Of a stretch of DNA of 32,000 nt, positions 547 to 20,677 are shown in pieces. Location of the stretch: positions 254,307-286,306 of the forward strand of contig JAKUPL010000003.1 of NCBI GenBank assembly GCA_022449455.1, in the 5' to 3' direction. Numbering within the stretch: position 1 is the first letter of the stretch; the number at the start of each line of letters is the position of its first letter. A program made the position numbers and the translations under genes. Below the pieces are notes generated by a model. That model saw nothing but the letters and a program-made list of their open reading frames with translations, did not search any database and had not been told where the DNA came from. This DNA comes from Alcanivorax sp. GTDB taxonomy: Bacteria > Pseudomonadota > Gammaproteobacteria > Pseudomonadales > Alcanivoracaceae.

Positions 547-1497
<951 letters not shown>

Positions 1498-2662: not shown

Positions 2663-3747
2663 GCCAGGGCCCCGGCCAGCGCCTCCACCACCCGGCTCAG
2701 ATCGTCGTCTTCCAGGTAGGGGTGCATGGGCAGGCTCATCACCTGCCCGGCCATGGCGTCGCCCACCGGCAGGCGGGCGTCCGGGTCCGCCACCGCCGGC
2801 TGGCGGTTCAGCGGGACCGGGTAATGCACCGCGGTGGGGATGCCCGCTTCCTTGAGGCGGGCCTGCACCCGGTCCCGCTCCGGCACCCGCACGGTGTACT
2901 GGGCCCAGGCGCTGACGTTGTGGGCTTCCACCACCGGGGTGGTGTCCAGGCCGGCGACGTTAAGCTTGCCGGTGTAGGCGGCGGCCACCCGGTCCCGACG
3001 GGCCAGCTCGTCTTCGAAGATCTCCAGCTTGGCCAGCAGGATGGCCGCCTGCAGGGTATCCAGGCGGCTGTTCAGGCCCACCCGGGCGTGGTGATAGCGG
3101 CGGTCCTGGCCGTGATTGGCGATCTGGCGGATGCGCTCCGCCAGCGCCTCGTCGCTGGTGAACAGGGCGCCCCCGTCCCCGTAGGCCCCCAGCGGCTTGC
3201 TGGGGAAGAACGAGGTAGTGGCGATGTGGCTCAGGTTGCCGGAGCGGCGGCCCTTGTAGGTGGCGCCCAGGCTCTGGGCGGCGTCCTCGATCACCACCAG
3301 GCCGTGGCGTTCGGCCACCGCGTTGATGGCGTCGAAGTCGGCGCACTGGCCGTACAGAGACACCGGAATAATGGCCTTGGTGCGCTGTGTGATCAGCGCT
3401 TCCAGGCCGGCCGGGTCCAGGTTGTAGGTGCGCGGGTCGATGTCCGCGTACACCGGGCGGGCACCGGTGACGGCCACCGCTTCGGCGGTGGCGATAAAGG
3501 TAAAGCCGGGGGTAATCACCTCGTCGCCGGGGCCGATACCCACGGCCATCAGGGCGATCTGCAGGGCGTCGGTGCCGTTGCCCACGCCAATACAATGGCC
3601 GGCGCCGGTAAAGGCGGCCAGCTTGTGTTCCAGCTCGGCCACTTCCGGGCCCTTGATGTACTGGCCGTGGGCCAGTACGGCCTGGATATTAGCGTCGACG
3701 GCGGCCTTGATGCGCGCCTGCTGGGCATGGAGATCAATAAACTGCAT
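2659..3747 (-). CDS. wbpE: UDP-2-acetamido-2-deoxy-3-oxo-D-glucuronate aminotransferase (WbpE/WlbC-like, DegT family)
   Basis: Trimmed from track ORF 2659..3978 to M78 ([14 protein letters not shown]...). From that point the protein follows the WbpE pattern (GNGTDALQIAL, SFFPSKPLG with the PLP lysine, HGQDRRYHH). The upstream 77 aa are Arg/Gly-rich high-GC read-through. This ATG shares one base with the wbpD stop (TGATG). Confidence 0.85.
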   Translation of the reverse strand: MQFIDLHAQQARIKAAVDANIQAVLAHGQYIKGPEVAELEHKLAAFTGAGHCIGVGNGTDALQIALMAVGIGPGDEVITPGFTFIATAEAVAVTGARPVYADIDPRTYNLDPAGLEALITQRTKAIIPVSLYGQCADFDAINAVAERHGLVVIEDAAQSLGATYKGRRSGNLSHIATTSFFPSKPLGAYGDGGALFTSDEALAERIRQIANHGQDRRYHHARVGLNSRLDTLQAAILLAKLEIFEDELARRDRVAAAYTGKLNVAGLDTTPVVEAHNVSAWAQYTVRVPERDRVQARLKEAGIPTAVHYPVPLNRQPAVADPDARLPVGDAMAGQVMSLPMHPYLEDDDLSRVVEALAGALA

Positions 3748-4328
3748 CAGCCAGCCTCTTTGGTCAGGGCCTTGCCGCGCAGTACATAAACCGCGCCGGT
3801 GTGCGGACACACCGCCCGGCCCTCGCCGTCCAGGGGCAGGTCCAGCTGCGCGCCGAACTCGCTCATCCAGCCGATCTGCCGGCCGGGCACGCCCACCACC
3901 AGGGCGTAGGCCGGCACATCCTTGTTGACCACGGCGCCGGCGCCGACAAAGGCGTGAGCGCCCACGGTGACCCCGCACACGATGGTGCAGTTGGCGCCCA
4001 GGGTGGCGCCGGTGCGAATCAGGGTGTCGCGGTATTCATCCTTGCGCTGGATAAAGGAGCGCGGGTTGTAGACGTTGGTGAACACCATGCTGGGGCCGCA
4101 GAAGACGCCATCTTCCAGGTGCACGTTGTCGTAGATGGACACGTTGTTCTGGATCTTGCAATCGTCGCCGATGGTCACTTTATTGCCAACGAACACGTTC
4201 TGACCCATGGACACATTGCGGCCCACCCGGGCACCGCCGCACACATGCACGAAGTGCCAGATGCGCGAGCCACTGCCGATTTGCGCGCCCTCATCGACGA
4301 TGGCGCTGTCGTGTACCTGATAATCCAT
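3747..4328 (-). CDS. wbpD: UDP-2-acetamido-3-amino-2,3-dideoxy-D-glucuronate N-acetyltransferase (WbpD/WlbB-like, left-handed beta-helix)
   Basis: Trimmed to M48 ([29 protein letters not shown]...). Shows hexapeptide repeats and the conserved FTNVYNPRS and [14 protein letters not shown] stretches that I recall from WbpD. Confidence 0.8.
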
Positions 4329-4369
4329 GAAACTGTCCGCCCCGAATAACAACCGCCTAGGGTACCAGC

Positions 4370-4386
4370 GGGCCCGGTCCGGGCCC
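4370..4386. other. Perfect 17-bp GC palindrome GGGCCCGG-T-CCGGGCCC upstream of wbpD
   Basis: Read directly from the sequence. It lies 42 nt upstream of the wbpD ATG and downstream of the GT remnant stop. There is no U-tract on the minus strand. Confidence 0.3.
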
Positions 4387-4470
4387 AGTCTCACGTCAAA
4401 GCCGCAAGCCCAAGCAGGAGGAGCGGTGAACGAGACGCTTTCCAAGGCCCGACCACTAAGGCCAAACATC

Positions 4471-5478: not shown

Positions 5479-6057
5479 TCAGCTAACCAGGAGCTGTTCC
5501 GCCTTTTGCATTAATTCGGGGGCAGCGGCACGGCTCTGGTGGTATTCCTTGGTGCTGTTCAGCATTCGTATCGCGGAAGCCAGCGTGATAAGCGATTGCG
5601 CGGGCTCTGGTGTCGCCTGAATTTTCCGGTTTTCCATCATCCATGCGAGAACTTCATCCGCGTGCCAAAGGGGGGTACCTCCGGATACCCGAGGCGATGG
5701 GAATCGCGTGGCGGTTCTTTTCACTTCACCTTTCGCATACTTACGCATCGCCTGCCGGGTGACTTTTGCCAGCCTGTCCGTCATCAGCTCGGCGAGCTCA
5801 GATAAATTAAGCAAATCCGGCCCTGCAGAGACCAATCGCGCTTCTGGGATAGCCGTTTTTACGTCTCGCACGGCGGTTTGCAACGCTTCCCAGGCGGTCG
5901 GCGCTTCTCGGTTGAAGTCGAGGGACAGATAGCCGTGGGAGGCGAGGCCGACCAAGGCATCGTCACAGCCTGCCTCGAACAGAGCGTCCAGCCAGAGTTC
6001 GGGGTCGGCCTCGCCGTCAGGAAGCTGAAAATGAAGCTGGAATTCAAACGTACTCAT
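5479..6057 (-). CDS. Two-domain DNA-binding protein: HicB-like alpha/beta N-domain plus helix-turn-helix; candidate antitoxin
   Basis: 192 aa. The N-terminus (FEFQLHFQLPDGEADPELWLDALFEAGCDDALVG...) is followed by LLNLSELAELMTDRLAKVTRQAMRKYAKGE...TPLWHADEVLAWMMENR, which looks like an excisionase/MerR-like HTH. Its ATG forms an ATGA overlap with the upstream small gene. Confidence 0.55.
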   Translation of the reverse strand: MSTFEFQLHFQLPDGEADPELWLDALFEAGCDDALVGLASHGYLSLDFNREAPTAWEALQTAVRDVKTAIPEARLVSAGPDLLNLSELAELMTDRLAKVTRQAMRKYAKGEVKRTATRFPSPRVSGGTPLWHADEVLAWMMENRKIQATPEPAQSLITLASAIRMLNSTKEYHQSRAAAPELMQKAEQLLVS

Positions 6058-6551: not shown

Positions 6552-7667
6552 TTACGGGCAGGCGCCCGCGAGGCAATCCAACCCCCCCCGCACCCCCAGG
6601 CGCTGGGCGAACTCCGCGTCGATGCGCCGGCGGGCGGCCTGCCCCGCCGCCGCCAGGGTCTCGGGGGGCAGCGCCAGGCAGTCCTCCATGCAGGCGGCCA
6701 GGGACTCGGCGCTCTTCACCTCACACAGCCAGCCGGTTTCGCCGTTCACCACCGCCTGGCGGCAGCCGGGCACGTCGGTGACGATGGCGGGGCGGCCCAT
6801 GGAGGCGGCTTCGAGCACGGTGCGGGGCATGCCTTCGCGGTAGGAGGGCAGCACCAGCACATGGCTCTCGGCCAGCCAGGGGCGCACGTCCTCCTGCTCG
6901 CCCAGGTACTCCACCACGCCCTCGCTCTGCCATTGGGCCACTTCATCCAGATGGATGGCGCTGCTGTTGCTCACCCCCAGCGGGCCGATCAGCAGAAAGC
7001 GGGCGTCCGAGTGCCGCCGGGCCACCTGCCCCGCCGCCGCCACGTACTCGCGCACGCCCTTATCGGCGATCATCCGCGCCACCATCACAAAGGTGAACGG
7101 CCCCTCGTGGGGCAAGGTGCTGAACGGAAAGCGCAGGGTGTCCATGCCCGAGCCCGGCAACAGCACCGTGGGCGTGCCCTTCAACAAGCCGGTGGCGTTG
7201 AACACCTGCAGGTCTTCCTCGTTCTGGAAGAACACACAGCGCGCCCCGCGGTTGGCGAAGGCATACAGCGAGCGCACCCGCCGATACAGCCAGCTATCGT
7301 GAATAAACGCCGTGCCCAGGCCAGACACATTGTTCGCATAGGGAATGCGCAGCAGACGGCACACCAGGCCGGAATAGATGTTGGCCTTCACGGTGAAATT
7401 GAACACGAACGCCGGCCGCAGCCGGCGTAACGCAAAAAACAGCCGCAACAGGCTCAGCGCCTCGCCCAGCAGACGCGTGCCCTTGCCATCCAACTGCAAC
7501 GGCACGAACTCCACCCCCAGCTCTTCCACCAGCTTGGTGGCATAGCGATCCGGCGGCGCCATGGTGACCACGCGATGGCCCTGGGCCACCAGCTCAGCCA
7601 GGGTGCCGCGACGGAAGTTGTAGAGATACCAGGCGGTGTTGGAGACGAGAACGATGGGCGCGATCAT
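6552..7667 (-). CDS. Glycosyltransferase family 4
   Basis: 371 aa. Has SNTAWYLYNFRRG at the N-terminus and the GT4 C-terminal signature LPSYREGMPRTVLEAASMGRPAIVTDVPG. Its ATG forms an ATGA overlap with the wzy stop. Confidence 0.8.
   Translation of the reverse strand: MIAPIVLVSNTAWYLYNFRRGTLAELVAQGHRVVTMAPPDRYATKLVEELGVEFVPLQLDGKGTRLLGEALSLLRLFFALRRLRPAFVFNFTVKANIYSGLVCRLLRIPYANNVSGLGTAFIHDSWLYRRVRSLYAFANRGARCVFFQNEEDLQVFNATGLLKGTPTVLLPGSGMDTLRFPFSTLPHEGPFTFVMVARMIADKGVREYVAAAGQVARRHSDARFLLIGPLGVSNSSAIHLDEVAQWQSEGVVEYLGEQEDVRPWLAESHVLVLPSYREGMPRTVLEAASMGRPAIVTDVPGCRQAVVNGETGWLCEVKSAESLAACMEDCLALPPETLAAAGQAARRRIDAEFAQRLGVRGGLDCLAGACP
6582..6589 (-). repeat. C8 (+) / G8 (coding strand) homopolymer inside the last 12 codons of the GT gene
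   Basis: Counted directly. It encodes part of ..GVRGGLD... The remnant copy at 4471-4549 has agccgccc at the equivalent position. Confidence 0.95.
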
Positions 7668-8713
7668 GAAGCGAAGGGGTACATTTGGTAGGGGAGCCAG
7701 GCATCTGCATTCGCGGCGAAATTCAACCAGACAAGCTGTACCAACGCATAGTAAAAAACCGTGCCTATAACGATAAGGGCTCTTGAATACCCATCAGACG
7801 AGACAGTATAAAGCCTGGAAAAAACATACAATTGCAGCGGAATTAAATACAAGGCTACTCGATCAGTGGCCGTAGACGAAACAACGACCAGAGGAATACA
7901 AGCCAACGAAAATATAGAAATCCAACGCCAGAGCTTAAAATCTTGCTCAGTAGAAACAATACGGCGCCCTACAAAAAGAAAAATTAGCGCCGGTACAGAA
8001 TTCATTAGAACTCGGACCAAGCCGCCCTGCGATTCGTACTCAGCAGTAACGTAATTGGCCCATAGTTTATCCACCGAATCGAGAACGAAAAAATAAGCCG
8101 CCAATAGCGAAATAACACCGACCCAAAAAAAATTCCAAGCTCTATGCTTGGAGGCAGACAGGGCAGCAACGGGCAACATCAAAACTACGGACTTGTGGAA
8201 CGTTGCACCCAACAACACCCAGAAAAAAAAATTTATGCTTTTACCTCTAGACAAAGATGCCAGACCCAAAAAAAGGAAACCTAGCGCCGCAGACTGTCTT
8301 GTGTACCCCATGGAGACCACAATTATTAAATAAGGTACCGCCACAACTAAACACAACCAAGCCTTTGGCTGATCCAAGGAAAACCGGACAACACCAGTCA
8401 TTACAATCATAGCGCAAATCAGATTCACCCATACTATGCCGCCGCCCAAATGATTGACTATATAATTAATTAGATAATAGCCTTGATCTCCCGATATCAA
8501 AACCTCCCAAAGATCTCGCCCGCCCCTCGATTCCAAATGATCCAAGTATGTAAACCAATCGCCGCCAACCTCCTGGCGACAACCGATAACCAGAACAAAA
8601 ATGACCCAAGCGAGACACCAAAGGATTAAATTTGCGCTGCGACCAAGCCGAAAGCTAAACAGCAAACCCAAAAAAGGTATAAGGAAAAGAATCCAATAAA
8701 CAATCACAAGCAA
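7664..8713 (-). CDS. wzy: Polytopic membrane protein, EpsG-like putative repeat-unit polymerase (Wzy)
   Basis: 349 aa and very hydrophobic, with multiple predicted TM segments. Contains the RQEVGGDWFTYLDHLE motif that resembles the EpsG family. Low GC. Located among GTs in a wzx-containing cluster. Confidence 0.6.
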   Translation of the reverse strand: MLVIVYWILFLIPFLGLLFSFRLGRSANLILWCLAWVIFVLVIGCRQEVGGDWFTYLDHLESRGGRDLWEVLISGDQGYYLINYIVNHLGGGIVWVNLICAMIVMTGVVRFSLDQPKAWLCLVVAVPYLIIVVSMGYTRQSAALGFLFLGLASLSRGKSINFFFWVLLGATFHKSVVLMLPVAALSASKHRAWNFFWVGVISLLAAYFFVLDSVDKLWANYVTAEYESQGGLVRVLMNSVPALIFLFVGRRIVSTEQDFKLWRWISIFSLACIPLVVVSSTATDRVALYLIPLQLYVFSRLYTVSSDGYSRALIVIGTVFYYALVQLVWLNFAANADAWLPYQMYPFAS

Positions 8714-8761: not shown

Positions 8762-9823
8762 TTAAACATCAAACCTAAGCCCGATAAGCCATTCTTGCAT
8801 GCGATCCGCCCAGGAAGCACGAATATTTACGCCACGGTATTCAGCTCGCATTGAATCAAGAAACTTTATAATTTGCTCTCGAGCGACCTCAGGGTCAGCA
8901 AAGTCAACACTAAAGCCCACCCGGTGACGCTCAACCTCATCGCTGTAACCCAAAGTGTTACTCTGCGCCGCAATGAATCGCTCATTCACGATGTAGTCGT
9001 ATAGCTTCAAAGGGCTTCCGGGGCTAATCCTGTTCGCCTTGACTGGCAGCAGGCAAACGTCAGCCGCACGAATCAAATCTGCACAACCGCTTTCTTCCAA
9101 CGGAGTTATGTTAATACAGTTCTCAGAACCTTCATAACGAGAAATATCGCCACCACCAACAACAATTTTTATATTATCACCATACTCATTGAATTTTTTC
9201 TGTAACGACAGAAGATAGTCTACGCCATGCCACTCCGACGCCCCTCCGGTAAAAACCAAATAAACGGCATCTTGAGATAAGCCAAATTTTTCTCTGGCTC
9301 TTTCCTTTGACAAGGATGATCTTGACCTCACATCAAACCCATTGTACGTAAAAAAATCAGACTCACTCCCGACACCATTAGATCGATACCAAGTCAACAG
9401 GTCGGGATGATTATAAATCCTAACATCCGACTTTTTATTAGTCCAATCAGCGACTATCGCCAAACCATGTACAACCATTCTTTTCACGCCATGAAATCTT
9501 AATAACTTAAGCTCCCCCAGCGTATCGGCATGAACCTCCCTAACCGTTTTTACATTAAGAACTTTAGCAAAACCAACTGAAAGAAACCCAACATGTCCTC
9601 TACTTATAAATATACTGGGCCGCCAAAAAATCAGGTACGCTAAGACAAGCGCCTCTATCAGAAAAATCTCCATAAATCTCAAAGGTTTCGATCGCATGTT
9701 CGCACTTAGCACCTTAAAATCATCAACGATTAAACTAAGAGCTTCCAATTTCTGCCTCGTTGCACGATCTTTCCCTGAAGAAGATTGTTTTAGATGAAAA
9801 TCGCAGGCGTACAACACTTTCAT
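8762..9823 (-). CDS. Glycosyltransferase (GT-B, GT4-like)
   Basis: 353 aa. The C-terminal domain carries VFTGGASEWHGVDYLL...SPGSPLKLYDYIVNE, which is reminiscent of the GT4 E-x7-E region. Low GC. Confidence 0.55.
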   Translation of the reverse strand: MKVLYACDFHLKQSSSGKDRATRQKLEALSLIVDDFKVLSANMRSKPLRFMEIFLIEALVLAYLIFWRPSIFISRGHVGFLSVGFAKVLNVKTVREVHADTLGELKLLRFHGVKRMVVHGLAIVADWTNKKSDVRIYNHPDLLTWYRSNGVGSESDFFTYNGFDVRSRSSLSKERAREKFGLSQDAVYLVFTGGASEWHGVDYLLSLQKKFNEYGDNIKIVVGGGDISRYEGSENCINITPLEESGCADLIRAADVCLLPVKANRISPGSPLKLYDYIVNERFIAAQSNTLGYSDEVERHRVGFSVDFADPEVAREQIIKFLDSMRAEYRGVNIRASWADRMQEWLIGLRFDV

Positions 9824-9862: not shown

Positions 9863-10999
9863 TTATTTGAAACTTGAAAAATAATTAAGACCAGCTTTAG
9901 TATTCGTGCAACCAGAAACAGCCTCAAAAGATCGTTTCAAAACATGCATCTTATCAACGTCTGATAGCGACAGAAAACGACTTATCTTATTTGCTATATC
10001 CACGGCATCAGCAGCACCAACCAAATACCCGTTAAAACCATCTACAACAATGCCATCTATTCCTTCCCCCACATGACCGATCACCAAACACCCCATAGCC
10101 ATCGCTTCCAAGTAAGCCAATCCGAGAGTTTCCGGTTTGCTAGGCATTATGTATATGCAAGAATCTTTTAAGAAATCAAAAACCTCTTCTTTTCTTCTCC
10201 AACCCGTAAAAAAAACACAATCGCCCAGGGCGAGATTGCAAACAAGCGACTTTAACTTTTTTAAATCTGGACCATCCCCCACTATCATTAAACTAGCCGA
10301 GACGCCGCGCTCATGTAATATCGGTAACGATTCGATTATTTTATCCACATTTTTTAAAGGCAACAAAGCGCCACAAAAAATCAATTTCACTACTTTAGAC
10401 TTACTGCAGAGATAACGCCCATCAAAGAGGTTTCTACTTCTGCCTGCCTCAATAAGCTTATCATCAATCCCCGAGTACACTACGCCCTTGACTTCGATAT
10501 TTCCGAATCGATCAAGCAATTTTCTTTTTATTGAGTCTGATCTAGCAAAAACACCATCATTATTTTCGATGGAAAGCTTTAAAGTTTTCTGGAAGAAATC
10601 CCCTTGATGAACCACAAGATAGTGACGTTTCGTGTTCAATGGTAATATCTTATTTGCGCGATAGTAACTCATCGACATGTGCGATATCACCGAATCATAC
10701 TGAGAAGCTGGCAGATACTTCCTTACAAAAAGCTTTGAGAGAAACGAAAGAAATCGAGTTCTATACCCAAAGATAGGGATATCGATTATTTTAACATTAC
10801 CTACGTAGCTAATTCCTATCTTTAAACGAATTTCTTTTGAAATAACTTGATTAAATCGAAGTACACCAACCACCATCATTCCGCCCTGAATGGCACTTTC
10901 GACCAAATCTTTCACTGCGTGCGTTTGATGGCCTCTTTCTCTGGTATCGGTATCGGGGTACAAATCCGTGCAAATCAAAAATCTAGTTGCATTCGTCAT
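9863..10999 (-). CDS. Glycosyltransferase family 4
   Basis: 378 aa. Carries the classic motif IYIMPSKPETLGLAYLEAMAMGCLVIGHVGEGIDGIVVDGFNGYLV. Confidence 0.75.
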   Translation of the reverse strand: MTNATRFLICTDLYPDTDTRERGHQTHAVKDLVESAIQGGMMVVGVLRFNQVISKEIRLKIGISYVGNVKIIDIPIFGYRTRFLSFLSKLFVRKYLPASQYDSVISHMSMSYYRANKILPLNTKRHYLVVHQGDFFQKTLKLSIENNDGVFARSDSIKRKLLDRFGNIEVKGVVYSGIDDKLIEAGRSRNLFDGRYLCSKSKVVKLIFCGALLPLKNVDKIIESLPILHERGVSASLMIVGDGPDLKKLKSLVCNLALGDCVFFTGWRRKEEVFDFLKDSCIYIMPSKPETLGLAYLEAMAMGCLVIGHVGEGIDGIVVDGFNGYLVGAADAVDIANKISRFLSLSDVDKMHVLKRSFEAVSGCTNTKAGLNYFSSFK

Positions 11000-11044: not shown

Positions 11045-12232
11045 TTACCCATCACAGGATTTCAAAACAGAAGCCAATAATTGGGTTGTTTTTCTTTCTA
11101 TTTGTTCCCAACCCCGCATTCCCATCAAGATTTCTCTATTCGTATTTCGTTCAGAACCAGAAAGCATTGAATGTAAAATTCCTGGATTATGCGTAATATC
11201 AGATGTTGAATTTATAAATACACCTCTTTTTTTATAGTACTCAAAAAAAGGGTTCTCTTCATTTAAGAAAACTCTAGCGCCCATATAAAGCGCTGAAGCG
11301 ATATTGGCGCCCGCTTGTTGCCTTTTATGATTCATGACCACAACAGAGCATGTTGAAATAATATCTATATAGTCCGAAAACTCTAAAAAATCGATCAGAG
11401 GCTTGAATTTTTTTCCAAAGTAGCGACGCCCTTCTTCCACGATAATCTCTCGATATCTCTCGTCTCCATAGCTCAACGGAACAATTATTTCGACATTTTT
11501 GTCATCCAAATGTGCATTCATTAATTCGAAAACATCTGAATGATTATTGGTTGGCGTAGCACTGTTACCAATCAGTATATTATTACCATTTGGAGCTGTA
11601 TACTTCTTGAGGCCATCGAACGACTTGGCTGATATGCCGTAGTTCCAGTCAAGATACATCGGAAAACTTTCACCATGATACATCTTTCTAACCATTTCAT
11701 ATTCCGATTCAAGCACAGGCGCGAACCATTTAATATTTTTTATGGTCTTCTTTTTATTTCTCCCTCCTTTATACACAATATAACGTAAAAATCTCTTCAG
11801 CTCCTTTACGCAGCTTTTTTTCTTCGGATTCATGGCACCAACGATTGATCGAGTCCGAGGCATCAACATATCTTCAGAATCTTTATATATTAAATCGTAA
11901 TAGTCAAACCCCATCCCAACCCATAAGAAATCAACCCTACAACCACAACGTGCAACGAGCTCGAGATTAAAAGCATTAAGCCCATGCAGAATCACGACAT
12001 CATAACTTTGAAGTTTTTTTATAAATTTAGAGCTCAGAAAGGAAAATTTCGACACTCTAATTGGCAAGATACTTTTTAAATGTTTTATTCTTTTACTTTT
12101 GTCTGGAAGATAATAATCGCTGCACGAAGGCGCTACTTTTTCGAATACATCATAAGCCGTATCGGGAAACTTCTCATCTCGGATAATATGTGCAATTCTT
12201 AAATCTGAGAAGCCTTCCATATTACATATCAT
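11045..12232 (-). CDS. GT56-family transferase (WecF-like, TDP-4-amino/acetamido-4,6-dideoxyhexose transferase)
   Basis: 395 aa. The C-terminal half matches the pattern I recall from E. coli WecF: ILIGNSATPTNNH (WecF ILVGNSGDRSNEH), VPLSYG, LEFSDYIDII, HKRQQAGANIA (WecF ARQQGIGTL), LNEENPFF (WecF LNRENPFW). An alternative start is M5 at 12220. Confidence 0.7.
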   Translation of the reverse strand: MICNMEGFSDLRIAHIIRDEKFPDTAYDVFEKVAPSCSDYYLPDKSKRIKHLKSILPIRVSKFSFLSSKFIKKLQSYDVVILHGLNAFNLELVARCGCRVDFLWVGMGFDYYDLIYKDSEDMLMPRTRSIVGAMNPKKKSCVKELKRFLRYIVYKGGRNKKKTIKNIKWFAPVLESEYEMVRKMYHGESFPMYLDWNYGISAKSFDGLKKYTAPNGNNILIGNSATPTNNHSDVFELMNAHLDDKNVEIIVPLSYGDERYREIIVEEGRRYFGKKFKPLIDFLEFSDYIDIISTCSVVVMNHKRQQAGANIASALYMGARVFLNEENPFFEYYKKRGVFINSTSDITHNPGILHSMLSGSERNTNREILMGMRGWEQIERKTTQLLASVLKSCDG

Positions 12233-13046
12233 AACCTAAAAGTTCCGCTTCTTTTGAACACATTCTTTTAATGGTTTGATAGTTTTCAGCAAAAAAACAC
12301 TTAGTATCTATCTTTGAATTGCCTTTACTTTGATACTGCTTATCTAAAAAGGCAGATATATCATTATTTACCTGCAAGCCAACCTCGTTCGCCAGCTGTT
12401 TAACATAAGCGTCCTTGTTAATTAAAAAATCTTCGTACTTCAAGAGCACAAAATTTTCTTTATTTTCTAAATATGTTCTTGCTCCAACTTTCCATCTATA
12501 AGCCAAAGCATCAACATAATTAGACGCCACATACCCCATCCATCTAGTATCCAAGTTAATTCTCCATGCAGGGGATTCTTTGACCAATGGATAACTTTCA
12601 ATGTCTAATGTTTCCAAGTCACCAGGCACTCTCAACCTATTTAATATGCTTCTAATGTTATCCATTGGGTGCCGGACGATCATAACGAATTTGGCTCGAG
12701 GGAAAACTCGGGATAACTCTTTGTAAAAAAAAGTAAGGCCGGGCTCTTTAATGATTTCTTTCTTAAACGATTCTCGATACTTATAAATATACTCTTCAAA
12801 AGATCCAATTCCGTATTGGATAAGAACTTTCCATTCAGGATGACGGATCGAGCGCAGCACATCCAGCGTAGCATCTTTACCTACGGCTTGAGCCAACAAG
12901 GCAGATATCGCCGTTGTTCCAGATTTTTGGACGCCGAGTATTATAACAGGAGCATCTCCTGATAAGGATCGGCAAAAATCGATAGCCTTTTTCTTTTGAT
13001 GGATATCCCACTCTGATTGCAGCTTATTCATTGCCCTTCGAATCAT
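12222..13046 (-). CDS. Sulfotransferase (PAPS-dependent)
   Basis: 274 aa. Has the 5'-PSB-like loop VIILGVQKSGTTAISALL and the 3'-PB-like FVMIVRHPMDNIRSILNR. Its ATG forms an ATGA overlap with the wzx stop, and its 3' end overlaps the GT56 start. Confidence 0.7.
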   Translation of the reverse strand: MIRRAMNKLQSEWDIHQKKKAIDFCRSLSGDAPVIILGVQKSGTTAISALLAQAVGKDATLDVLRSIRHPEWKVLIQYGIGSFEEYIYKYRESFKKEIIKEPGLTFFYKELSRVFPRAKFVMIVRHPMDNIRSILNRLRVPGDLETLDIESYPLVKESPAWRINLDTRWMGYVASNYVDALAYRWKVGARTYLENKENFVLLKYEDFLINKDAYVKQLANEVGLQVNNDISAFLDKQYQSKGNSKIDTKCFFAENYQTIKRMCSKEAELLGYDM

Positions 13047-14482
13047 GACTTCCTCTTATTAAAGAAATATTTGACTGTAGCCAGCAGTTTCGGATCCATA
13101 AGAGTAGAAAGAGAAATATAAAGAATCACAAAAGAAATACTGGAAAAAACGACATAAGCTGCGTCCCCGATTACGTTGTTCGACCCGATGTAAAAAACCA
13201 AGAGGCCTAGGAATAGCGACAATGAAAATGGAAGCTTTATATCTCTCCATTGCTCCATCAGCGTATAGTCAATAAGCTTTTCAGAATAGTACTTATTTGG
13301 ATAGTACGAAATTACCGAATTTATGATTTGCGCCCATAACACTCCCAATATTCCAAACCTGATTCCAATCCATAAGGTAAGTGCCAGAAGAGCTTTTTTG
13401 AATATTTGCAAGCCAAGCAGTAAATCTGAGCGGCCAAGGACTCTTAGTATGTTTAAATTTATCGAATGGAGCGGTAACAGCAGCGCGGCGATACATAAGA
13501 GCTGGAAATAGAAGTGAGCATGGTGCCATTTTTCTGGCAACATCAATGTGTATAACGGTTTAGCCAAAGCGGCAAGGATAGCCACAGAAGGGAAATAAGC
13601 AAACACAGTGACTCTTATAACTTTACGATAATCACTCTTCAGCTTTACAAGATCATCCTGTTGCTTTGATAGCGCTGGATAGCTGACCTTTTGTATTGAG
13701 TTTATTATTTGTCCTGTTATTAATTCTTTCATTCTCTCCGCAAAGAAGTAAAGGCCTGCCGTGTGCGCGGAGAAAACTTTCGCTATAATAACGACATATA
13801 TATTCTTAAAAACTGTTTCTAGTGCCCCCGACAAAAAGAGCTTATAGCCAAAAGAATACATTTCTTTTAAAGAGGTGAAACTGAATGATAATCCGGGAAG
13901 CCATTTATTAAGAATCCAAAGGAACAAAGTTTGGAAAAGAGCGGCCATCAGCATTTGTATGACCAGGGCCCAAACGCCAAAACCCTCTTTCGCTAAAAGT
14001 ACAGCGATTACCCCGGATAACAGAACGGCAGGAAAAGTAGCTTTTAATTGAGTTTTGAAATCTAGTTTTCTGCTTAGATCAGCGATCTGAACCACCTGGA
14101 AGGAATTTATCAGTATCGCTATTGAAGAAACGCGAATCAGAATTTCTAGATTAGGCTCATTGTAAAAGGCCGAGATAGCAGGGGCACAAATATAGAGAAG
14201 AGCATATGACACCACCCCCAGACCAATATTTGAGTAAAAAGCTGTATTATAATCTTCTTCTTTTGCATTCTTTTTTCGGATTAGAGCTTGTGTGAAGCCT
14301 GAATCCATTAATGACTGACCTAGCGCCAGGAATATCGCCATCATCGAGATAAGCCCGAAATCTTCCGGCGTCAACAACTTAGCTAAAATTATTGTTATGA
14401 TGATCCCCATTCCACGACGAGCCAACTGCTCTAGAAAATTCCAGATCACTCCGATGACCGTACGATTTGAGATACGTAGCAT
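13043..14482 (-). CDS. wzx: Wzx-type flippase (MOP/polysaccharide biosynthesis protein family)
   Basis: 479 aa and polytopic. The N-terminus GVIWNFLEQLARRGMGIIITIILAKLLTPEDFGLISMM is typical of Wzx/RfbX proteins. Confidence 0.8.
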   Translation of the reverse strand: MLRISNRTVIGVIWNFLEQLARRGMGIIITIILAKLLTPEDFGLISMMAIFLALGQSLMDSGFTQALIRKKNAKEEDYNTAFYSNIGLGVVSYALLYICAPAISAFYNEPNLEILIRVSSIAILINSFQVVQIADLSRKLDFKTQLKATFPAVLLSGVIAVLLAKEGFGVWALVIQMLMAALFQTLFLWILNKWLPGLSFSFTSLKEMYSFGYKLFLSGALETVFKNIYVVIIAKVFSAHTAGLYFFAERMKELITGQIINSIQKVSYPALSKQQDDLVKLKSDYRKVIRVTVFAYFPSVAILAALAKPLYTLMLPEKWHHAHFYFQLLCIAALLLPLHSINLNILRVLGRSDLLLGLQIFKKALLALTLWIGIRFGILGVLWAQIINSVISYYPNKYYSEKLIDYTLMEQWRDIKLPFSLSLFLGLLVFYIGSNNVIGDAAYVVFSSISFVILYISLSTLMDPKLLATVKYFFNKRKS

Positions 14483-14576
14483 TGGGTTCAGTTATTTAAA
14501 CTCAGAAAATTTTATACGCCGCATTTTCAGAAATCTCTAACAACACGGAGCAACCATGAATTCAAGAAAGTGGAAT

Positions 14577-15407
14577 CTAATAATTCAGCCAAGTCAGTTG
14601 CTTCTCGGCGATAGCATTAAATTCATTTATATTTGAATCGCTCAACTCAGATTTAAAACCACCAATCCGTCCAGGGTCCAACCCCTCAAGAGTCTTGGCC
14701 TTCCACTGCAGGAACTCTTTCGGCTCATCGTTATTACGCTCATAACCGAGCATAAGCGGATGAAAATCCAATCCCAAATGACGACAAACGTACCTTAAAG
14801 TTTCTTCCGGAGATACCAAAAGATCCTCATATTTGATAAAAATCGCGCCTTCCTTTACTGAAGCCATCATTATGTCGACACTATCTGCCCATTCCATGGC
14901 AATTTCTGCGATATCATTCTTAAGTATAGGCCTATACTTCGATACGATGTTTTTCTCAGACAACTTCCTGTACGAACAGGCCACGTCTCTACCATCTCGG
15001 ACAATAAATATCTTTTTTGACCCACTGAAGTATTTCTTTATTAGGTCCATGTTATTTATATAATAGTTATTTTTATCACCAACGATCTCTGCGTTCTTCT
15101 CTGTTTTTCTTGCATATGCAAGATACACGCAGCGACAAAGGCCTGCATAGTTTTTCGGTTGATTCCTTTGAATCTGATCATCTATAGCATCAAAATCCAG
15201 CCCCCATGTTTCAAATTTTCTAGTATTCAACACATCCATAATGTAATTATATGTTTGTGTGTCTTCGAACTCACCTTTGTATCGATCTGCCAACCATAGA
15301 GCAAAACCACACTCCGGGGGAACGGTGATAGATGGATGACTATTTAAAATTAAACGAAATAATGACGTTCCGGATCTTGGGTTTCCTAGTATAAAAAAAT
15401 CAGCCAT
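14577..15407 (-). CDS. Sulfotransferase (Sulfotransfer_3-like, PAPS-dependent)
   Basis: Trimmed to M37 ([27 protein letters not shown]...). Has the 5'-PSB PRSGTS and the 3'-PB IFIVRDGRDVACS. The ATG at 15407 overlaps the aminotransferase stop by 8 nt (ATGGCTGA). Confidence 0.75.
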   Translation of the reverse strand: MADFFILGNPRSGTSLFRLILNSHPSITVPPECGFALWLADRYKGEFEDTQTYNYIMDVLNTRKFETWGLDFDAIDDQIQRNQPKNYAGLCRCVYLAYARKTEKNAEIVGDKNNYYINNMDLIKKYFSGSKKIFIVRDGRDVACSYRKLSEKNIVSKYRPILKNDIAEIAMEWADSVDIMMASVKEGAIFIKYEDLLVSPEETLRYVCRHLGLDFHPLMLGYERNNDEPKEFLQWKAKTLEGLDPGRIGGFKSELSDSNINEFNAIAEKQLTWLNY

Positions 15408-16500
15408 CTTGTTGCTCCTTAACAACAAACACAATTGTTTCAGAGATATCCTCTGGCATTGAAGAATACATAGGGAAGCAAAGAATGCGTTTTGACAAAT
15501 CTCGACTGACAACAAAAGCCGCAGGAGTATCCGAAAAGTTCAACAGATCCAAGGAAGGGTAAAAATATCTTCTTGGATGAATCTCCAATTTCCCTAAAAT
15601 ATTTATTAAATCCCTAACTTTATGCTTGCTTTCAAATGCAGCAGGAAAGTAAGTGTAATTATTGTCACAATGAACATTTCTTTTTTGTAGTTGAGCAACA
15701 TCCTCAATTCCGAACTTATACCTATCCCATATTCCTTGGCGAGATTTCAGGTGCTCGGCCATTTCATCCAACACACAAAGTCCCATCGCCGCTTGGAATT
15801 CATTCATCTTAGCGTTGATTCCAAGCTCATCGATCTGCTCAGGCCCGGAAAGCCCGAAGTTGATCATTAATTTCGCTTTTTCCAGGTCCTCTTTGCGTTT
15901 GAAGACGATGGCACCACCTTCCACTGTGTGAAAGAGTTTTGTGGCGTGGAAACTGAGTGTTGCCGCGTCGCCATGTTTCAGCAGGCTTTCACCTTTATAG
16001 GTCACGCCAAAGGCGTGGGCACCGTCGTAAATCACCTTAAGATTGTGCTTGCGGGCAATTTCATTGATGGCTTCTACCTCGCAGGCATTGCCGAATACGT
16101 GCACAGGCACGATAGCTCGAGTACGTGAGGTGATGGCCGGTTCAATGTTCGCCGGGTCCAGGCACCAGGTGTCCGGATCGATGTCGGCGAACACTGGCTC
16201 CACACCTTCCCACTTCAAAGAGCTCGCCGTGGCAACAAAAGAAAACGGTGTGGTGATAGCTTCCGCGGGGGTGTCAGAAGCCTGCCCTGAGACGCCCAGG
16301 ACCCGGTAGGCGATCTGCAGCGCCAAGGTGCCATTGGCGACCAGTAACAGGTTTTCAACGCCCAGGTACTCTTCCAACCTCCGGGTCAATTCCTGAACCA
16401 GGGGGCCGTTATTGGTCAGCCAGTTCCGTTCGTATATGCCGTCGATGTAGCGATCCAGCTTCTTCCGGTCAGGCAGATAGGGCTTAGTGACTGGAATCAT
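15400..16500 (-). CDS. DegT/DnrJ/EryC1-family PLP aminotransferase, probable dTDP-4-keto-6-deoxyhexose 4-aminotransferase (VioA/WecE-like)
   Basis: 366 aa. Contains [43 protein letters not shown] and LSFHATK (PLP lysine). It lies directly downstream of rmlB-rmlA with no 3,4-isomerase, so a 4-amino product is the simplest reading. Confidence 0.75.
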
Positions 16501-17365
16501 GCTCTTCCACCAGATCGAGAAGGTATTTCCCGTAACCGTTCTTCGCGAGGCTATCGCCGATTACGGCCACTTCCTTGGCGCTGAGCCAGCCGTTGTAGAG
16601 AGCAATTTCTTCCAGACAGGCGATTTTGTAGCCCTGGCGCTTCTCTACGGTCTCCACGAACTGGGCGGCTTCCAGCAGGCTTTCGTGGGTACCGGTGTCC
16701 AGCCAGGCAAAGCCACGACCCAGCACTTCCACGCTCAGGTCGCCTCTCTCTAAATAAGCCTGGTTGATACTGGTGATTTCCAGCTCGCCACGATGAGAAG
16801 GCTTGACCGCCTTGGCCATCTCGATCACATCGTTGTCGTAGAAATAGAGCCCGGTTACCGCAAAGTGTGACTTCGGCTTATCCGGCTTCTCTTCAATGGA
16901 CACAGCCTTCTTGTTGTCGTCGAATTCGACCACGCCAAAGCGCTCGGGGTCTTTGACCTGATAGCCAAATACCGTAGCGCCGGATTCTCTGGCAGCCGCT
17001 TCTTTCAGCTTGGGCGAGAAGCCTTGTCCGTAGAAGATGTTGTCGCCCAGCACCAGACAGACCCGATCATCGCCGATAAAGGATTCACCCAGGATAAACG
17101 CTTGAGCGAGCCCGTCCGGGCTGGGCTGTTCTTTATACGTCAGGTTGATGCCGTAACGGCTGCCATCGCCCAGCATGCGCTGAAAGCCGGACATGTCCTC
17201 CGGCGTGGTAATGATCAGAATGTCGCGGATACCCGCCAACATGAGCACCGACAATGGGTAGTAGATCATCGGCTTGTCGTAGATCGGAAGAAGCTGCTTG
17301 GAGACACCCATGGTGATGGGATAAAGGCGGGTTCCACTGCCGCCTGCGAGAATGATGCCTTTCAT
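16484..17365 (-). CDS. rmlA: Glucose-1-phosphate thymidylyltransferase
   Basis: 293 aa. Starts with [57 protein letters not shown], the canonical RmlA/RfbA N-terminus. Confidence 0.93.
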
Positions 17366-18450
17366 GCGCTTTCCCTCTGGCCGGTACCCAGCCGTTCACG
17401 TTGATAGCTTCCATCTTGCACCCGGGCACACCAGTCGTGGTTGTCCAGGTACCATTGCACGGTTTTCTTTAATCCCGTTTCGAAGGTCTCCTGAGGCACC
17501 CAGCCCAGCTCCCGGTCGATCTTGCCGGCGTCGATGGCGTAGCGAAGATCATGGCCGGGGCGGTCCTTCACAAAGGTAATCAGGTCGCGGTAGTGGTTTA
17601 CCGATTCAAGTCTGGCATTGTCACCCGGCGGAACCAGCTCCTGGAGAAGATCGCAAAGCGTGTGCACCACCTCAATGTTCTGCATTTCGTTGTGGCCACC
17701 GATATTGTAGGTCTCTCCCACCGCACCTTCAGTAACCACTTTGTAGAGCGCGCGGGCGTGATCTTCCACGTAGAGCCAATCGCGAATCTGGTTGCCTTTC
17801 CCATAGACCGGCAAAGGCTTGCCTTCCAAGGCGTTGAGGATCATCAGTGGAATCAGCTTTTCGGGGAAATGGTAGGGCCCGTAGTTATTGGAGCAATTCG
17901 TGACCACCACCGGCAAACCGTAGGTGCGGTTCCAGGCCCGCACCAGATGATCGGAGCTGGCTTTGCTGGCCGAGTAAGGGGAACTCGGCGCATAGGAAGT
18001 CAGCTCAGTGAACAGCCCGTCCGGGCCTTCCAGATCGCCATAGACTTCGTCGGTGGAGACATGGTGCAACCGAAAGCGGCTACGCTGTTCATCTTCCAGC
18101 CCGTTCCAATAGTGGCGGCAGACTTCCAGCAGCGTGTAGGTGCCGATGATGTTGGTTTCGATAAAGGCGGCCGGGCCGTCAATGGAGCGGTCCACATGGC
18201 TCTCCGCCGCCAGGTGCATCACCGCATCTGGCTTGTGCTCGCTGAAGACACGTTCCAGCGACGCCCGGTCGCAGATATCAACATGCTCGAATTGGTAGCG
18301 GCCATCCGTGGAGACCGTCGCCAGGGATTCAAGATTGCCGGCATAGGTCAGCTTGTCCACATTGACGACGCTGTTACCGGTATTACCAATAATATGGCGC
18401 ACGACGGCGGAACCGATAAACCCGGCGCCGCCTGTTACTAATAATTTCAT
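17362..18450 (-). CDS. rmlB: dTDP-glucose 4,6-dehydratase
   Basis: 362 aa. Has [14 protein letters not shown], the SDR catalytic [10 protein letters not shown], and the typical RmlB C-terminus. Its stop forms an ATGA overlap with the rmlA start. Confidence 0.93.
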
Positions 18451-18549
18451 ACCGTAATGCCCATCTTTTCTTCCAATATAAGTATCCCAAACGCCTCAAA
18501 AAAAATTTTCCAACATTATGCGGCTTTCATTAAGCGACAGCATCGATCC

Positions 18550-20556
18550 TTATAATTTAAAATCCAAAGCCTCCATTATTTTGCCAACAACTTTGGCACT
18601 GCCTTTACCGTTAATATGATTATTGTCAGAATATAATGGCATTCCATTCTCAGCAACTACGCAGCGATCAGGAACAATCGAGTCACAGAAGATATTCTCC
18701 GGATAAACTCTTTTAAGTTTTTTGCTATCAGGAATTTGATCCAAAAGCGAATTTGTGACTTTAGCTCTATCTATAAATACTTTATGACTGGTTGACAAAT
18801 CTTTTTGGTCAACTCCTAAGAATTGTATTTCTTTTGCCATATAAATAGGCACATCCCATCCGGCTTCAGGAACAGGATAAACCAACACCACCTGTTTACC
18901 CGCAGCTATCAACTTTTCTACCGTTTGCGCGTAGAGGGCGCCCATTTCCCCATACCTTTCCGGATTCTCGATAAACCTTCTCCCCTTACCAACGGGCAGC
19001 CCATACACTTCTCTGTAGGGCTCTTTCCCACCTTCATGATTGTCGAAAGTTCGACCCATAGTTTTCAAGATATACCTTCCATGGAGCACCACTACTTTGA
19101 TTTCATTACTTTTAACTAAATATTGATAAACTTTATTGTTATATTCAACACAACGATCCAATTTTTCAAAATTATAATAATTCAAAACCGGCAGACAGCT
19201 GCTGTAACTGAACTCCCTGAGACCGTAACCTTTACCATTTAACGCCGCACCCAGTTCATCAGCAATAGTCATGGCATGGCTGTCACCCCAAATAGCGACA
19301 GCGACATTATTATTATCACCATAGACACATGAATCATTCGGCTCTACGAACTTTCCTGGTGTGGAAAAACACTCTGACTTGCGCCGGTTATCATCACCAC
19401 TATATTGAAGAACTTCTAGCGACCTCTTCTCAAAGCGCCCAGGGTACCCATCAAAAAAATTTATCATTAGGCCTATAAAAATCAGGGCCGCTGTGCCTGC
19501 CGCGCCACTTTTGAATATGGACGATCTCCCGTAACGCTTCCTATCACGGAACGGTTGCTCGCAAAAACGCCATGACAGATATGCCACGACAAAAGATACC
19601 AAACATAGCATCAACAAGTTCATATCGGATGGTTCGCTCACACTTCTGATACGTGCAAACGCAATAATCGGCTGGTGCCATAAGTAAGCGCTATAACTAA
19701 TAAGTCCAACAGCAACTAAAGGTTTACAACTTAGAATTTTCCCAATCCAAGTATCAGATCCTGAGCAAGCAATTAGCCCCATCACTCCCAGAACGGGCAA
19801 TAAGGCATACAAACTGGGAAACCGAACACTTCCGTCAAAGATCAGAACACTGGCCGCTATTGCAGCCAAACCCAGGATGGAAATTATTTGTCTCAACCAG
19901 TAACTTCCAACTGTTTTTCCAGCTACAGTGAGGGCCATTATCGCACCAGCCCCCAACTCCCAAGCCCTTGATGGAAGAAGAAAGAAATTTGCAGACACAA
20001 GGGTTCTCGATAGCAATTCCGCCAGTGCCAGGCTTAACAAAGTAAGTATTGCTATCACTGTAACGACAGTGTTTTGCTTGGCTTTACCTATAATCAAAAG
20101 GAGAATTGGAAAAAGCACATAGAATTGCTCTTCCACCGCCAAACTCCATGTATGCAGCAGCGGATTCAGCTCAGCCTCGGTGGCGAAATACCCAGATTCA
20201 TGCCAAAACAATACATTGGAAGAGAAAATCCCAACGGCAGCCATGCCCCGGCCAAACTCTTTGAAATCTTCTGGAAACTGCCATAAATAAGCAAAGAACA
20301 AGGAAACAAAACACATCAAAAAGAGCGCAGGCAATATCCTCCGCGCACGTCTTTCATAGAAATTCACTATAGAGAAGCTTTTCTCTCTTATTTCATCGTA
20401 AATTATTCCCGTTATCAGATATCCGCTGATAACGAAGAATATGTCAACACCGATAAAACCGCCGGAAAAACCTTCAAACCCCGCATGAAAAAAAACGACC
20501 GGAATCACAGCGAGAGCACGCAGCCCATCTATCTCCGGCCTGTATTTAATAGACAC
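18550..20556 (-). CDS. Membrane acyltransferase_3 fused to a C-terminal SGNH domain (OafA/YrhL-like polysaccharide O-acetyltransferase)
   Basis: 668 aa with a GTG start. RPEIDGLRALAVIPVVFFHAG...GVDIFFVISGYLIT is the AT3 signature. It has about 10 TM segments followed by a soluble domain (WGDSHAM). Low GC, with AT-rich flanks on both sides. Confidence 0.85.
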   Translation of the reverse strand: MSIKYRPEIDGLRALAVIPVVFFHAGFEGFSGGFIGVDIFFVISGYLITGIIYDEIREKSFSIVNFYERRARRILPALFLMCFVSLFFAYLWQFPEDFKEFGRGMAAVGIFSSNVLFWHESGYFATEAELNPLLHTWSLAVEEQFYVLFPILLLIIGKAKQNTVVTVIAILTLLSLALAELLSRTLVSANFFLLPSRAWELGAGAIMALTVAGKTVGSYWLRQIISILGLAAIAASVLIFDGSVRFPSLYALLPVLGVMGLIACSGSDTWIGKILSCKPLVAVGLISYSAYLWHQPIIAFARIRSVSEPSDMNLLMLCLVSFVVAYLSWRFCEQPFRDRKRYGRSSIFKSGAAGTAALIFIGLMINFFDGYPGRFEKRSLEVLQYSGDDNRRKSECFSTPGKFVEPNDSCVYGDNNNVAVAIWGDSHAMTIADELGAALNGKGYGLREFSYSSCLPVLNYYNFEKLDRCVEYNNKVYQYLVKSNEIKVVVLHGRYILKTMGRTFDNHEGGKEPYREVYGLPVGKGRRFIENPERYGEMGALYAQTVEKLIAAGKQVVLVYPVPEAGWDVPIYMAKEIQFLGVDQKDLSTSHKVFIDRAKVTNSLLDQIPDSKKLKRVYPENIFCDSIVPDRCVVAENGMPLYSDNNHINGKGSAKVVGKIMEALDFKL

Positions 20557-20677
20557 TTACAAGCACCTTTTAATCCATTTATTTATTTGCGCTAACAACA
20601 GCTTAACCTTACAAATTTTTTAACGCTTCAAAACCTTGTTCAATCTCTGAAGAATATGCTGATCAAAAGCGGATTTC

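Follow-up and report, generated by a model that had tools for sequence, protein, structure and literature searches.

The described dTDP-viosamine pathways follow a common plan, in which a sugar aminotransferase (AT) of the VioA/DesI type is followed by a tailoring enzyme (a VioB-type left-handed β-helix (LbH) protein, a formyltransferase, WbqC or an ATP-grasp enzyme) and then by a dedicated glycosyltransferase (GT). In descriptions of bacterial glycans, to our knowledge, sugar amines nearly always bear an acyl group. A 32,000-nucleotide stretch of a metagenome contig of Alcanivorax sp. (JAKUPL010000003.1, positions 254,307 to 286,306; the whole stretch is called the window) contains a block of glycan assembly genes (11045-18450) that shares the first three steps and the AT, tailoring enzyme, dedicated GT architecture with these pathways. 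Where they have an acyl, formyl or aminoacyl enzyme in the tailoring slot, however, the window has a PAPS (3'-phosphoadenosine 5'-phosphosulfate)-type sulfotransferase, denoted ST1. Comparison of the locus with a sister strain and with loci from 12 or more phyla makes it very probable that ST1 is the dedicated partner of a DesI-like AT and stands in for the amine-capping enzyme.

The enterobacterial common antigen (ECA) locus of E. coli (rffG-rffH-wecD-wecE-wzxE-wecF-wzyE) shares rmlB/rmlA paralogs, a sugar 4-aminotransferase, Wzx and a GT56 enzyme with the block, and an earlier sequence-only reading of this DNA had taken ECA as its model. The analogy stands for the kinds of gene present but not for their positions, since wecD lies upstream of wecE and the slot is therefore not positionally equivalent. 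The window has no WecD, its AT falls under the WecE cut-off, its GT56 protein matches WecF in the C-terminal half only, and its polymerase is of the EpsG type, not the WzyE type. The sugars also differ, being galacto (Fuc4N) in ECA and probably gluco (Qui4N) in the window. In ECA the 4-amino-6-deoxyhexose is linked α-1,4 to a uronic acid. The evidence for the capping slot is stronger than this analogy.

Gene calls were made from an open reading frame (ORF) listing together with Pfam and NCBIfam scans of the window proteins (Table 1). They reproduce the gene order given by the sequence-only reading (rmlB, rmlA, AT, sulfotransferase, wzx, a second sulfotransferase (ST2), GT56, GTs, wzy). The overlap that it had noticed between the start of ST1 and the stop of AT is real: the two genes overlap by 8 nt as ATGGCTGA (ATG 15407-15405, TGA 15402-15400), with a Shine-Dalgarno sequence, AAGGAG, 7 nt upstream of the ST1 ATG. 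Overlaps also join wzx to ST2 (4 nt, at the wzx stop) and ST2 to GT56 (11 nt). Between 6.5 and 20.6 kb the ORF, Pfam and NCBIfam scans found no GNAT gene and no LbH gene, in agreement with the claim that the block has neither a GNAT nor a hexapeptide N-acyltransferase; nor is any ORF of at least 80 aa in 11045-18450 unaccounted for, except antisense ones inside rmlA and rmlB. The sole LbH protein of the window had been assigned to another pathway, and its gene does overlap a DegT aminotransferase gene of its own in the high-G+C flank. This second pair, WbpE/WbpD-like by adjacency, is predicted to serve a separate amino-sugar pathway.

In the sister strain, Alcanivorax sp. N3-2A, the locus occupies the corresponding site. 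Its β-CASP protein, RmlB, RmlA, AT and terminal GT4 are 96%, 97%, 100%, 78% and 91% identical to those of the window. After the AT, N3-2A encodes an LbH protein (310 aa), a 191-aa protein, KASIII and ACP instead of ST1, and the order then resumes with wzx, ST2, GT56 and EpsG (62%, 55%, 49% and 64% protein identity). At the DNA level (blastn) the two strains are 96.7% identical over 18451-15757, after which homology is lost inside the AT gene. Because N3-2A holds an N-acylation cassette where the window holds ST1, the two are alternative occupants of one slot.

The AT-ST1 pair recurs far beyond Alcanivorax. A genome scan with an ST1 alignment gave 80 loci which, with two further loci, made a set of 81 non-redundant loci; flanks of up to 10 kb were fetched around them. 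An AT homolog lies within the fetched flanks in 80 of the 81, and in 61 it is directly upstream of ST1 on the same strand (median gap 4 bp). The loci come from 12 or more phyla: Bacteroidota, Gamma-, Alpha- and Betaproteobacteria, Campylobacterota, Desulfobacterota, Verrucomicrobiota, Acidobacteriota, Nitrospirota, Planctomycetota, Chloroflexota, Patescibacteria and a Methanosarcinaceae archaeon. The pair is found in three assembly contexts, namely Wzx/Wzy, the Wzm/Wzt ABC transporter (the Bacteroidota arrangement is Wzm-Wzt-AT-ST1-GT2) and flagellin glycosylation islands. Behind ST1 comes a glycosyltransferase gene, of family GT2 in 37 loci and of family GT56 in 10. The partner GT varies (GT2, GT56, giant flagellin transferases); the AT does not. 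This constancy, the highest of any partner found, makes the nucleotide-sugar stage the most likely point at which ST1 acts on the AT product. Several related loci also carry genes for PAPS supply (CysC, CysD, CysQ, sulfate permease).

A control set was built by scanning metagenomes with an AT alignment, which gave 80 loci (47-68% identity) with a scorable downstream gene in 68. Directly after the AT these have WbqC (18 of 68), an LbH acyltransferase (17), an ATP-grasp ligase (about nine), a sugar N-formyltransferase (three) or a Sulfotransfer_4 protein (two), and in none of the 68 is it ST1; an amine-modifying enzyme occupies the position in about 47. Six control loci (L094, L095, L099, L102, L114, L163) contain an AT-LbH-GT56 trio and one (L093) an AT-formyltransferase-GT56 trio, which are paralleled by AT-ST1-GT56 in L004, L008, L042, L066 and L072. 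In the fetched flanks of the ST1 loci, 11 loci have an LbH gene, which in no case comes next after the AT, and the other capping genes are few (WbqC in four, ATP-grasp in one, a formyltransferase-like gene in one); GNAT is not among the 25 families most often matched by 111 short neighbour proteins of these loci. The sister-strain swap, the phylum-spanning AT-ST1 pair and the control ATs together uphold the proposal that a sulfotransferase sits in the amine-capping slot.

The best NCBIfam model for the AT is that of DesI (TIGR04427, 258 bits, below its cut-off of 650), ahead of the WecE models PRK11706 (178 bits, cut-off 375) and TIGR02379 (135 bits, cut-off 435), and its closest PDB entry is DesI (2PO3, 2.7e-52), with WecE (4PIW) at 2e-29. 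These matches make the AT DesI/VioA-like and not WecE-like. RmlA and RmlB are both above the equivalog cut-offs of TIGR01207 and TIGR01181. No 3,4-ketoisomerase was found among the ORFs of at least 80 aa in 11045-18450, so amination is expected at C-4; the AT is probably of the C-4 type, with gluco (equatorial) stereochemistry predicted. Because the AT is DesI/VioA-like and has its ortholog (70% identical) in a D-Qui4N-bearing strain, Idiomarina zobellii KMM 231, the product is most likely dTDP-4-amino-4,6-dideoxy-D-glucose (dTDP-Qui4N, viosamine) and not the galacto sugar of ECA.

ST1 looks like a catalytically intact PAPS-type sulfotransferase. Its 5'-phosphosulfate-binding loop is PRSGTS (residues 10-15), with P10, R11, S12 and G13 invariant in 26 homologs and a family form of PRSGT(S/T); the 3'-phosphate-binding motif RDGRDVACS (residues 137-145) has R137 and S145 invariant in the same set. 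Also invariant is Glu32 in PPECGF, which aligns with the PPE of the sulfotransferase (ST) domains of CurM and olefin synthase (OLS) and whose equivalent is the general base in TPST and CurM ST. PPECGF, GDKNNYY and EP..F..WK are invariant motifs of ST1's own. In the AlphaFold2 model (pLDDT 95.7, pTM 0.92) the best folds identified by Foldseek are TPST2 [3AP3, 5.6e-12, TM about 0.67] and CurM ST [4GBM, 1.4e-09], and a profile search of the PDB likewise places the CurM/olefin-synthase ST domains and TPST1/2 first (4GBM 5e-22; identity 16-21%). NoeE gives a weak match (7.3e-09). No NDST or heparan sulfotransferase chain is among the 45 profile matches or the 50 listed fold matches. As a means of separating N- from O-sulfotransferases the fold and sequence comparison failed; it places ST1 near TPST and CurM ST and is uninformative about the acceptor atom. 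The family comprises 1,488 representatives clustered at 50% identity (E ≤ 1e-30), no characterized member of which was found, and its members are candidate amino-sugar sulfotransferases. Long family members (P0296, P0343, P0344, P0331, P0241 and others) were searched for AT-ST1 fusions and matched sulfotransferase domains only, mostly two or more each. Tandem proteins with 2-4 sulfotransferase domains, at least one of ST1 type, are P0241 (1298 aa), P0296, P0343, P0344, P0351, P0376 and P0381.

We propose the following pathway. By family membership, RmlA and RmlB would produce dTDP-4-keto-6-deoxy-D-glucose, which the DesI/VioA-like AT would convert to dTDP-Qui4N, as its homology, the missing isomerase and the I. 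zobellii ortholog suggest. ST1, PAPS-dependent and translationally coupled to the AT, would act on dTDP-Qui4N in place of an N-acyl-, N-formyl- or N-aminoacyltransferase, most likely sulfating the 4-amino group to a sulfamate (dTDP-Qui4NS). The GT56-like enzyme, the predicted transferase for the modified 4-amino sugar, would add it to the lipid-linked repeat unit; Wzx would flip the unit and the EpsG-type polymerase would join units, with Wza, Wzc and presumably Wzb encoded in the flank. ST2 would act independently, probably O-sulfating another position. N-sulfation is favoured over O-sulfation because capping genes almost never adjoin the AT in ST1 loci. It is the most parsimonious choice of acceptor, and we put its chances at about even.

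The O-antigen locus of I. zobellii KMM 231T (L004) contains the same module at 44-80% protein identity (AT 70%, ST1 50%, GT56 44%) in the order wzz-rmlB-rmlA-AT-ST1-GT56-wzx-wzy, together with two glycosyltransferases, a second sulfotransferase, a 332-aa protein, WecC and WecB; the second sulfotransferase (322 aa, by WecC/WecB) differs from ST2 of the window. Sulfamates are acid-labile, shift the adjacent H and C resonances upfield as a free amine does (heparin GlcNS), and are spared by base degradation. An O-sulfate in this polymer would be conspicuous by NMR. The O-polysaccharide is given as ->3)-a-D-Quip4N-(1->4)-a-D-GlcpA-(1->6)-a-D-GlcpNAc-(1->4)-a-L-GulpNA-(1->3)-D-FucpNAc-(1-> in a summary of Kilcoyne et al. 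2004 (PMC3210612), so that Qui4N is α-1,4-linked to a uronic acid, like the ECA sugar. In that summary, Qui4N and GulNA have free amino groups, no sulfate is mentioned and the FucNAc-Qui4N bond is described as unexpectedly acid-labile (PMC3210612). Two sulfotransferase genes thus stand beside two un-acylated amines and no reported O-sulfate. The data fit N-sulfation and do not prove it; the N-sulfate would then have been overlooked by the authors of the structure. Because the cluster contains a second sulfotransferase, GulNA is perhaps N-sulfated too.

The gene for that second, distantly ST1-like sulfotransferase overlaps that of the 332-aa protein (16982-18930 in L004), immediately upstream of the genes for WecC and WecB, the plausible source of the GulNA precursor. 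The 332-aa protein was considered as a de-N-acetylase and gave no significant family match. A role for ST1 as an 'activating' sulfotransferase that creates a leaving group, as in CurM, was also considered and rejected, as the published summary shows an ordinary Qui4N in I. zobellii, in which nothing has been eliminated or rearranged.

Extended to the whole family, N-sulfation would mean that in many bacteria and some archaea ST1 enzymes place sulfate on the amine of 4-amino-4,6-dideoxyhexoses while these are still nucleotide sugars, that the products were missed owing to acid work-up and free-amine-like NMR, and that the Qui4N of native I. zobellii polymer, perhaps with GulNA, is N-sulfated. 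This wider claim is tentative, and we rate it somewhat short of even. If true, sulfamate sugars would be expected in O-antigens, capsules, ABC-transporter-dependent glycans and flagellin glycans.

Several findings weigh against N-sulfation. The nearest solved relatives of ST1 (TPST1/2, CurM, OLS domains) sulfate hydroxyl groups, and no sequence feature separates N- from O-sulfotransferases. Two acyltransferases are encoded in the window itself, an LbH acetyltransferase at a distance of 10 kb and an AT3 enzyme beside rmlB. A Flavobacterium metagenome-assembled genome (MAG) has the arrangement Wzm-Wzt-AT-ST1-sulfotransferase-LbH-191aa-KASIII (L022, 8890-14383), with the same LbH/191-aa/KASIII cassette as N3-2A and one aminotransferase only in the fetched 19.7 kb; this single clear case of ST1 coexisting with an N-acyl cassette has a layout that suggests N-acylation and O-sulfation of one sugar and that the N-sulfation reading does not explain. 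Base degradation was also applied to the I. zobellii polymer, and the summary still reports free amines (PMC3210612). Finally, the I. abyssalis O-antigen has, by the title cited in PMC9695755, a 2-O-sulfated, N-acylated Qui3N, a chemical precedent for combining the two modifications on one sugar. An I. abyssalis ST1-family gene is not among the best 120 matches to the I. zobellii protein, only some of which carry names.

The main rival explanation draws on the same findings and holds that ST1 O-sulfates the same 4-amino-6-deoxyhexose (on O-2 or O-3, for example) while it is a nucleotide sugar or already lipid-linked, with the amine left free (zwitterionic) or acylated from elsewhere. The hydroxyl acceptors of the closest solved relatives, the joining of one AT, ST1 and an N-acyl cassette in L022 and the I. 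abyssalis sugar all speak for it, and AT-ST1 pairing fits it equally well as N-sulfation. It predicts, however, a capping gene beside the AT, as is found in 47 of 68 controls, and almost no ST1 locus has one; in N3-2A the acyl cassette replaces ST1 and does not join it; and the I. zobellii summary gives no O-sulfate on Qui4N or any other residue of the polymer (PMC3210612). We consider same-sugar O-sulfation unlikely, though the best placed of the rivals.

A second possibility is that ST1 acts elsewhere, on another residue of the repeat unit, on a position that is terminal or only sub-stoichiometrically modified, or on a glycan of another kind, in which case its adjacency to the AT would reflect operon packaging and the Qui4N amine would be free. 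The terminal modifications of Wzm/Wzt pathways control chain length, and the Bacteroidota loci are of the Wzm/Wzt type. Many related loci hold several sulfotransferases of other families (ST_other, Sulfotransfer_4, ST338-type), and a free-amine Qui4N is what the summary reports in I. zobellii (PMC3210612). Yet adjacency in 61 of 81 loci, with a 4 bp median gap, across 12 or more phyla and in three pathways would be surprising if the two enzymes did not share a substrate, and the downstream GT varies between loci whereas the AT does not; this makes the second possibility improbable. Very improbable is N-acetylation of the 4-amino sugar from outside the block (by the LbH protein, the AT3-SGNH protein or an unlinked GNAT) with both sulfotransferases acting on hydroxyls. 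The window does encode the first two of these, but the LbH gene forms an overlapping, WbpE/WbpD-like pair with an aminotransferase gene of its own, the dedicated Qui4N acyl cassette of N3-2A argues against a role of flank enzymes on this amine (if N3-2A shares the LbH-bearing flank), AT3-SGNH enzymes are O-acyltransferases and the gene here is a strain-specific insertion, and I. zobellii has the same module with no N-acyl group on Qui4N in its published summary.

N-sulfation of the Qui4N amine by ST1, if it holds, would be the chemistry of heparan NDST, the PAPS-dependent conversion of a sugar amine to a sulfamate. NDST uses a Glu general base and acts on a polymer in the Golgi. The acceptor of ST1 would be a nucleotide sugar rather than a polymer, and ST1 has no listed sequence or fold match to NDST. 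The closest solved structures, the CurM/olefin synthase ST domains and TPST1/2, have the PRSGT(S/T) loop in common with ST1 but act on β-hydroxyacyl-ACP or a tyrosine hydroxyl, whereas ST1 has invariant motifs of its own. We know of no described prokaryotic counterpart of heparan-sulfate N-sulfation. The bacterial carbohydrate sulfations known to us are all O-sulfates, and we neither know of nor found in the papers searched a case in which the enzyme is described as the conserved partner of a sugar aminotransferase. Rhizobial NodH/NoeE and mycobacterial Stf0 likewise decorate surface glycans in a PAPS-dependent manner, and the capsular polysaccharide of Vibrio sp. KMM 8419 and the I. abyssalis O-antigen are likewise sulfated marine surface glycans. 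Sulfotransferase genes inside polysaccharide clusters have been reported (PMC11641403). The searchable literature gave nothing relevant on N-sulfated bacterial sugars or on a sulfotransferase acting on viosamine, in keeping with the supposition of the sequence-only reading that no bacterial nucleotide-sugar sulfation of this kind had been described; the sole co-mention of sulfotransferase and viosamine concerns giant viruses and an unrelated cluster.

ST2 is barely related to ST1 (24.6 bits), has no match in the PDB, and has a homolog in L090 without an adjacent aminotransferase. Because ST2 is kept in N3-2A, where ST1 is replaced and the sugar is N-acylated instead, it is not tied to the amino sugar and probably O-sulfates another position of the repeat unit. 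The GT56-like protein matches WecF/GT56 only in its C-terminal half and scores 144 bits with NF002756, against a cut-off of 457.

Table 1. Features of the window, with positions on its forward numbering.
Feature	Position	Strand	Evidence or remark
AT3+SGNH acyltransferase, OafA-like	18550..20556	minus	PF01757 2.3e-30, PF19040 7.9e-44; directly upstream of rmlB
rmlB, dTDP-glucose 4,6-dehydratase	17362..18450	minus	TIGR01181 510 bits, cut-off 365
rmlA, glucose-1-phosphate thymidylyltransferase	16484..17365	minus	TIGR01207 510 bits, cut-off 361
DegT-family sugar 4-aminotransferase (AT), DesI/VioA-like	15400..16500	minus	PF01041 1.8e-86
Divergent 3' third of the AT gene, recombination junction of the variable region	15400..15757	minus	blastn against N3-2A
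Sulfotransferase ST1, PAPS-type, 276 aa	14577..15407	minus	PF13469 3.9e-27
wzx flippase	13043..14482	minus	PF13440 2.7e-85
Sulfotransferase ST2	12222..13046	minus	PF13469 6.5e-15, PF00685 4.4e-09
GT56-like glycosyltransferase, divergent WecF relative	11045..12232	minus	PF07429 4.8e-14 (residues 217-338 only), NF002756 5e-42
GT4 glycosyltransferase	9863..10999	minus	PF00534 1.3e-30
Probable glycosyltransferase, weak GT1 match	8762..9823	minus	PF00534 2.6e-05, below cut-off
EpsG-family polymerase (Wzy role)	7664..8713	minus	PF14897 6.1e-58
GT4 glycosyltransferase, conserved end of the variable region	6552..7667	minus	PF13692 4.9e-28
LbH acetyltransferase, WbpD-like by adjacency	3747..4469	minus	PF00132 3e-19; overlaps second DegT gene
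Second DegT aminotransferase, WbpE-like by position	2659..3978	minus	PF01041 1.1e-122
GFO-type oxidoreductase	547..1491		near second DegT/LbH pair

With 38-45% G+C, the block (about 7.7-20.5 kb) forms an island within a 63-71% G+C genome, and the locus is present on three metagenome contigs (L001, L002, L003). The other flank encodes TviB-like and TviC-like enzymes, Wzc and Wza, with a small ORF between Wzc and Wza. The AT3+SGNH gene beside rmlB, which the sequence-only reading did not list, is a strain-specific insertion absent from the N3-2A locus. Its region (18451-20691; gene 43-48% G+C) is inserted as about 2.2 kb between a β-CASP gene and rmlB, where N3-2A has about 80 bp, and the gene call is 564 aa in L001 and 668 aa in L002 and L003. 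The β-CASP/metallo-β-lactamase (RNase J-like) gene flanks the locus in the window (20678-22132), in L004 (1155-2546), in L088 (1248-2702) and in L089 (262-1623), and looks like a conserved boundary marker of the variable region in Alcanivorax, I. zobellii and Marinobacter sp. F4206. An AbiEii toxin gene adjoins the locus in L001 (18137-19668), N3-2A (L088, 18562-20258) and I. zobellii (L004, 2751-4212), preceded in L001 and N3-2A by a DUF6088 gene; the equivalent place in the window has only a 192-aa ORF without an assigned family (5479-6057).

Among the more distant loci, AT-ST1 lies beside flagellin genes in Oceanisphaera pacifica, Halomonas sp. M20 and a Nitrincola MAG (L010, L012, L015), a sign that the same modified amino sugar may be attached to flagellin. 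Giant proteins of 1275-1528 aa are encoded beside the pair on the minus strands (L010 10210-14796, L012 11427-15254, L015 8163-12101); the two that were scanned (L010, L012) consist of TPR repeats, GT41 and GT56, with an FkbM methyltransferase too in L010. The Methanosarcinaceae archaeon MAG (L058) has RmlA (72% identity), AT (62%), ST1 (39%) and RmlB in the bacterial arrangement, suggesting horizontal transfer of the whole module.

Other sulfotransferases also gather around the AT. A Sulfotransfer_4 protein is encoded directly before AT-ST1 in several Bacteroidota loci (gene -2 in L034, L050, L053 and L078), and some loci carry three sulfotransferases around one aminotransferase. The Sulfotransfer_4 proteins directly after the AT in the two control loci (L117 3517-4212, L132 3256-3888) are about 210-230 aa. 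Members of another Sulfotransfer_3 family, 'ST338' (about 335-370 aa), occur one or two genes after a WbqC or ATP-grasp ligase gene downstream of the same AT (L089 5669-7421; L097, L098, L161, L092, L146, L147), a recurrence that may mean that an amino-acyl group on Qui4N is sulfated. In L089 there are also CysC, sulfate permease, CysQ and an ST2 homolog.

The recurrence of AT-ST1 suggests that a bacterial amino sugar is sulfated, perhaps on its nitrogen, in a way not yet described, by a widespread family (12 or more phyla, 1,488 representatives) that is nearly always tied to the same aminotransferase. An N-sulfate, if true, would add a new kind of cap for nucleotide-sugar amines, and published 'free amino' sugars would be flagged for re-examination. 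If O-sulfation is true instead, the AT-ST1 pair would still mark an unrecognized sulfated amino-sugar building block. The alternation of sulfate and acyl at this slot gives O-antigen genetics a further cassette that defines serotype. As a soluble bacterial enzyme, ST1 may offer a route to N-sulfated or regiospecifically O-sulfated amino sugars, of use in the chemoenzymatic synthesis of heparin-like or zwitterionic glycans.

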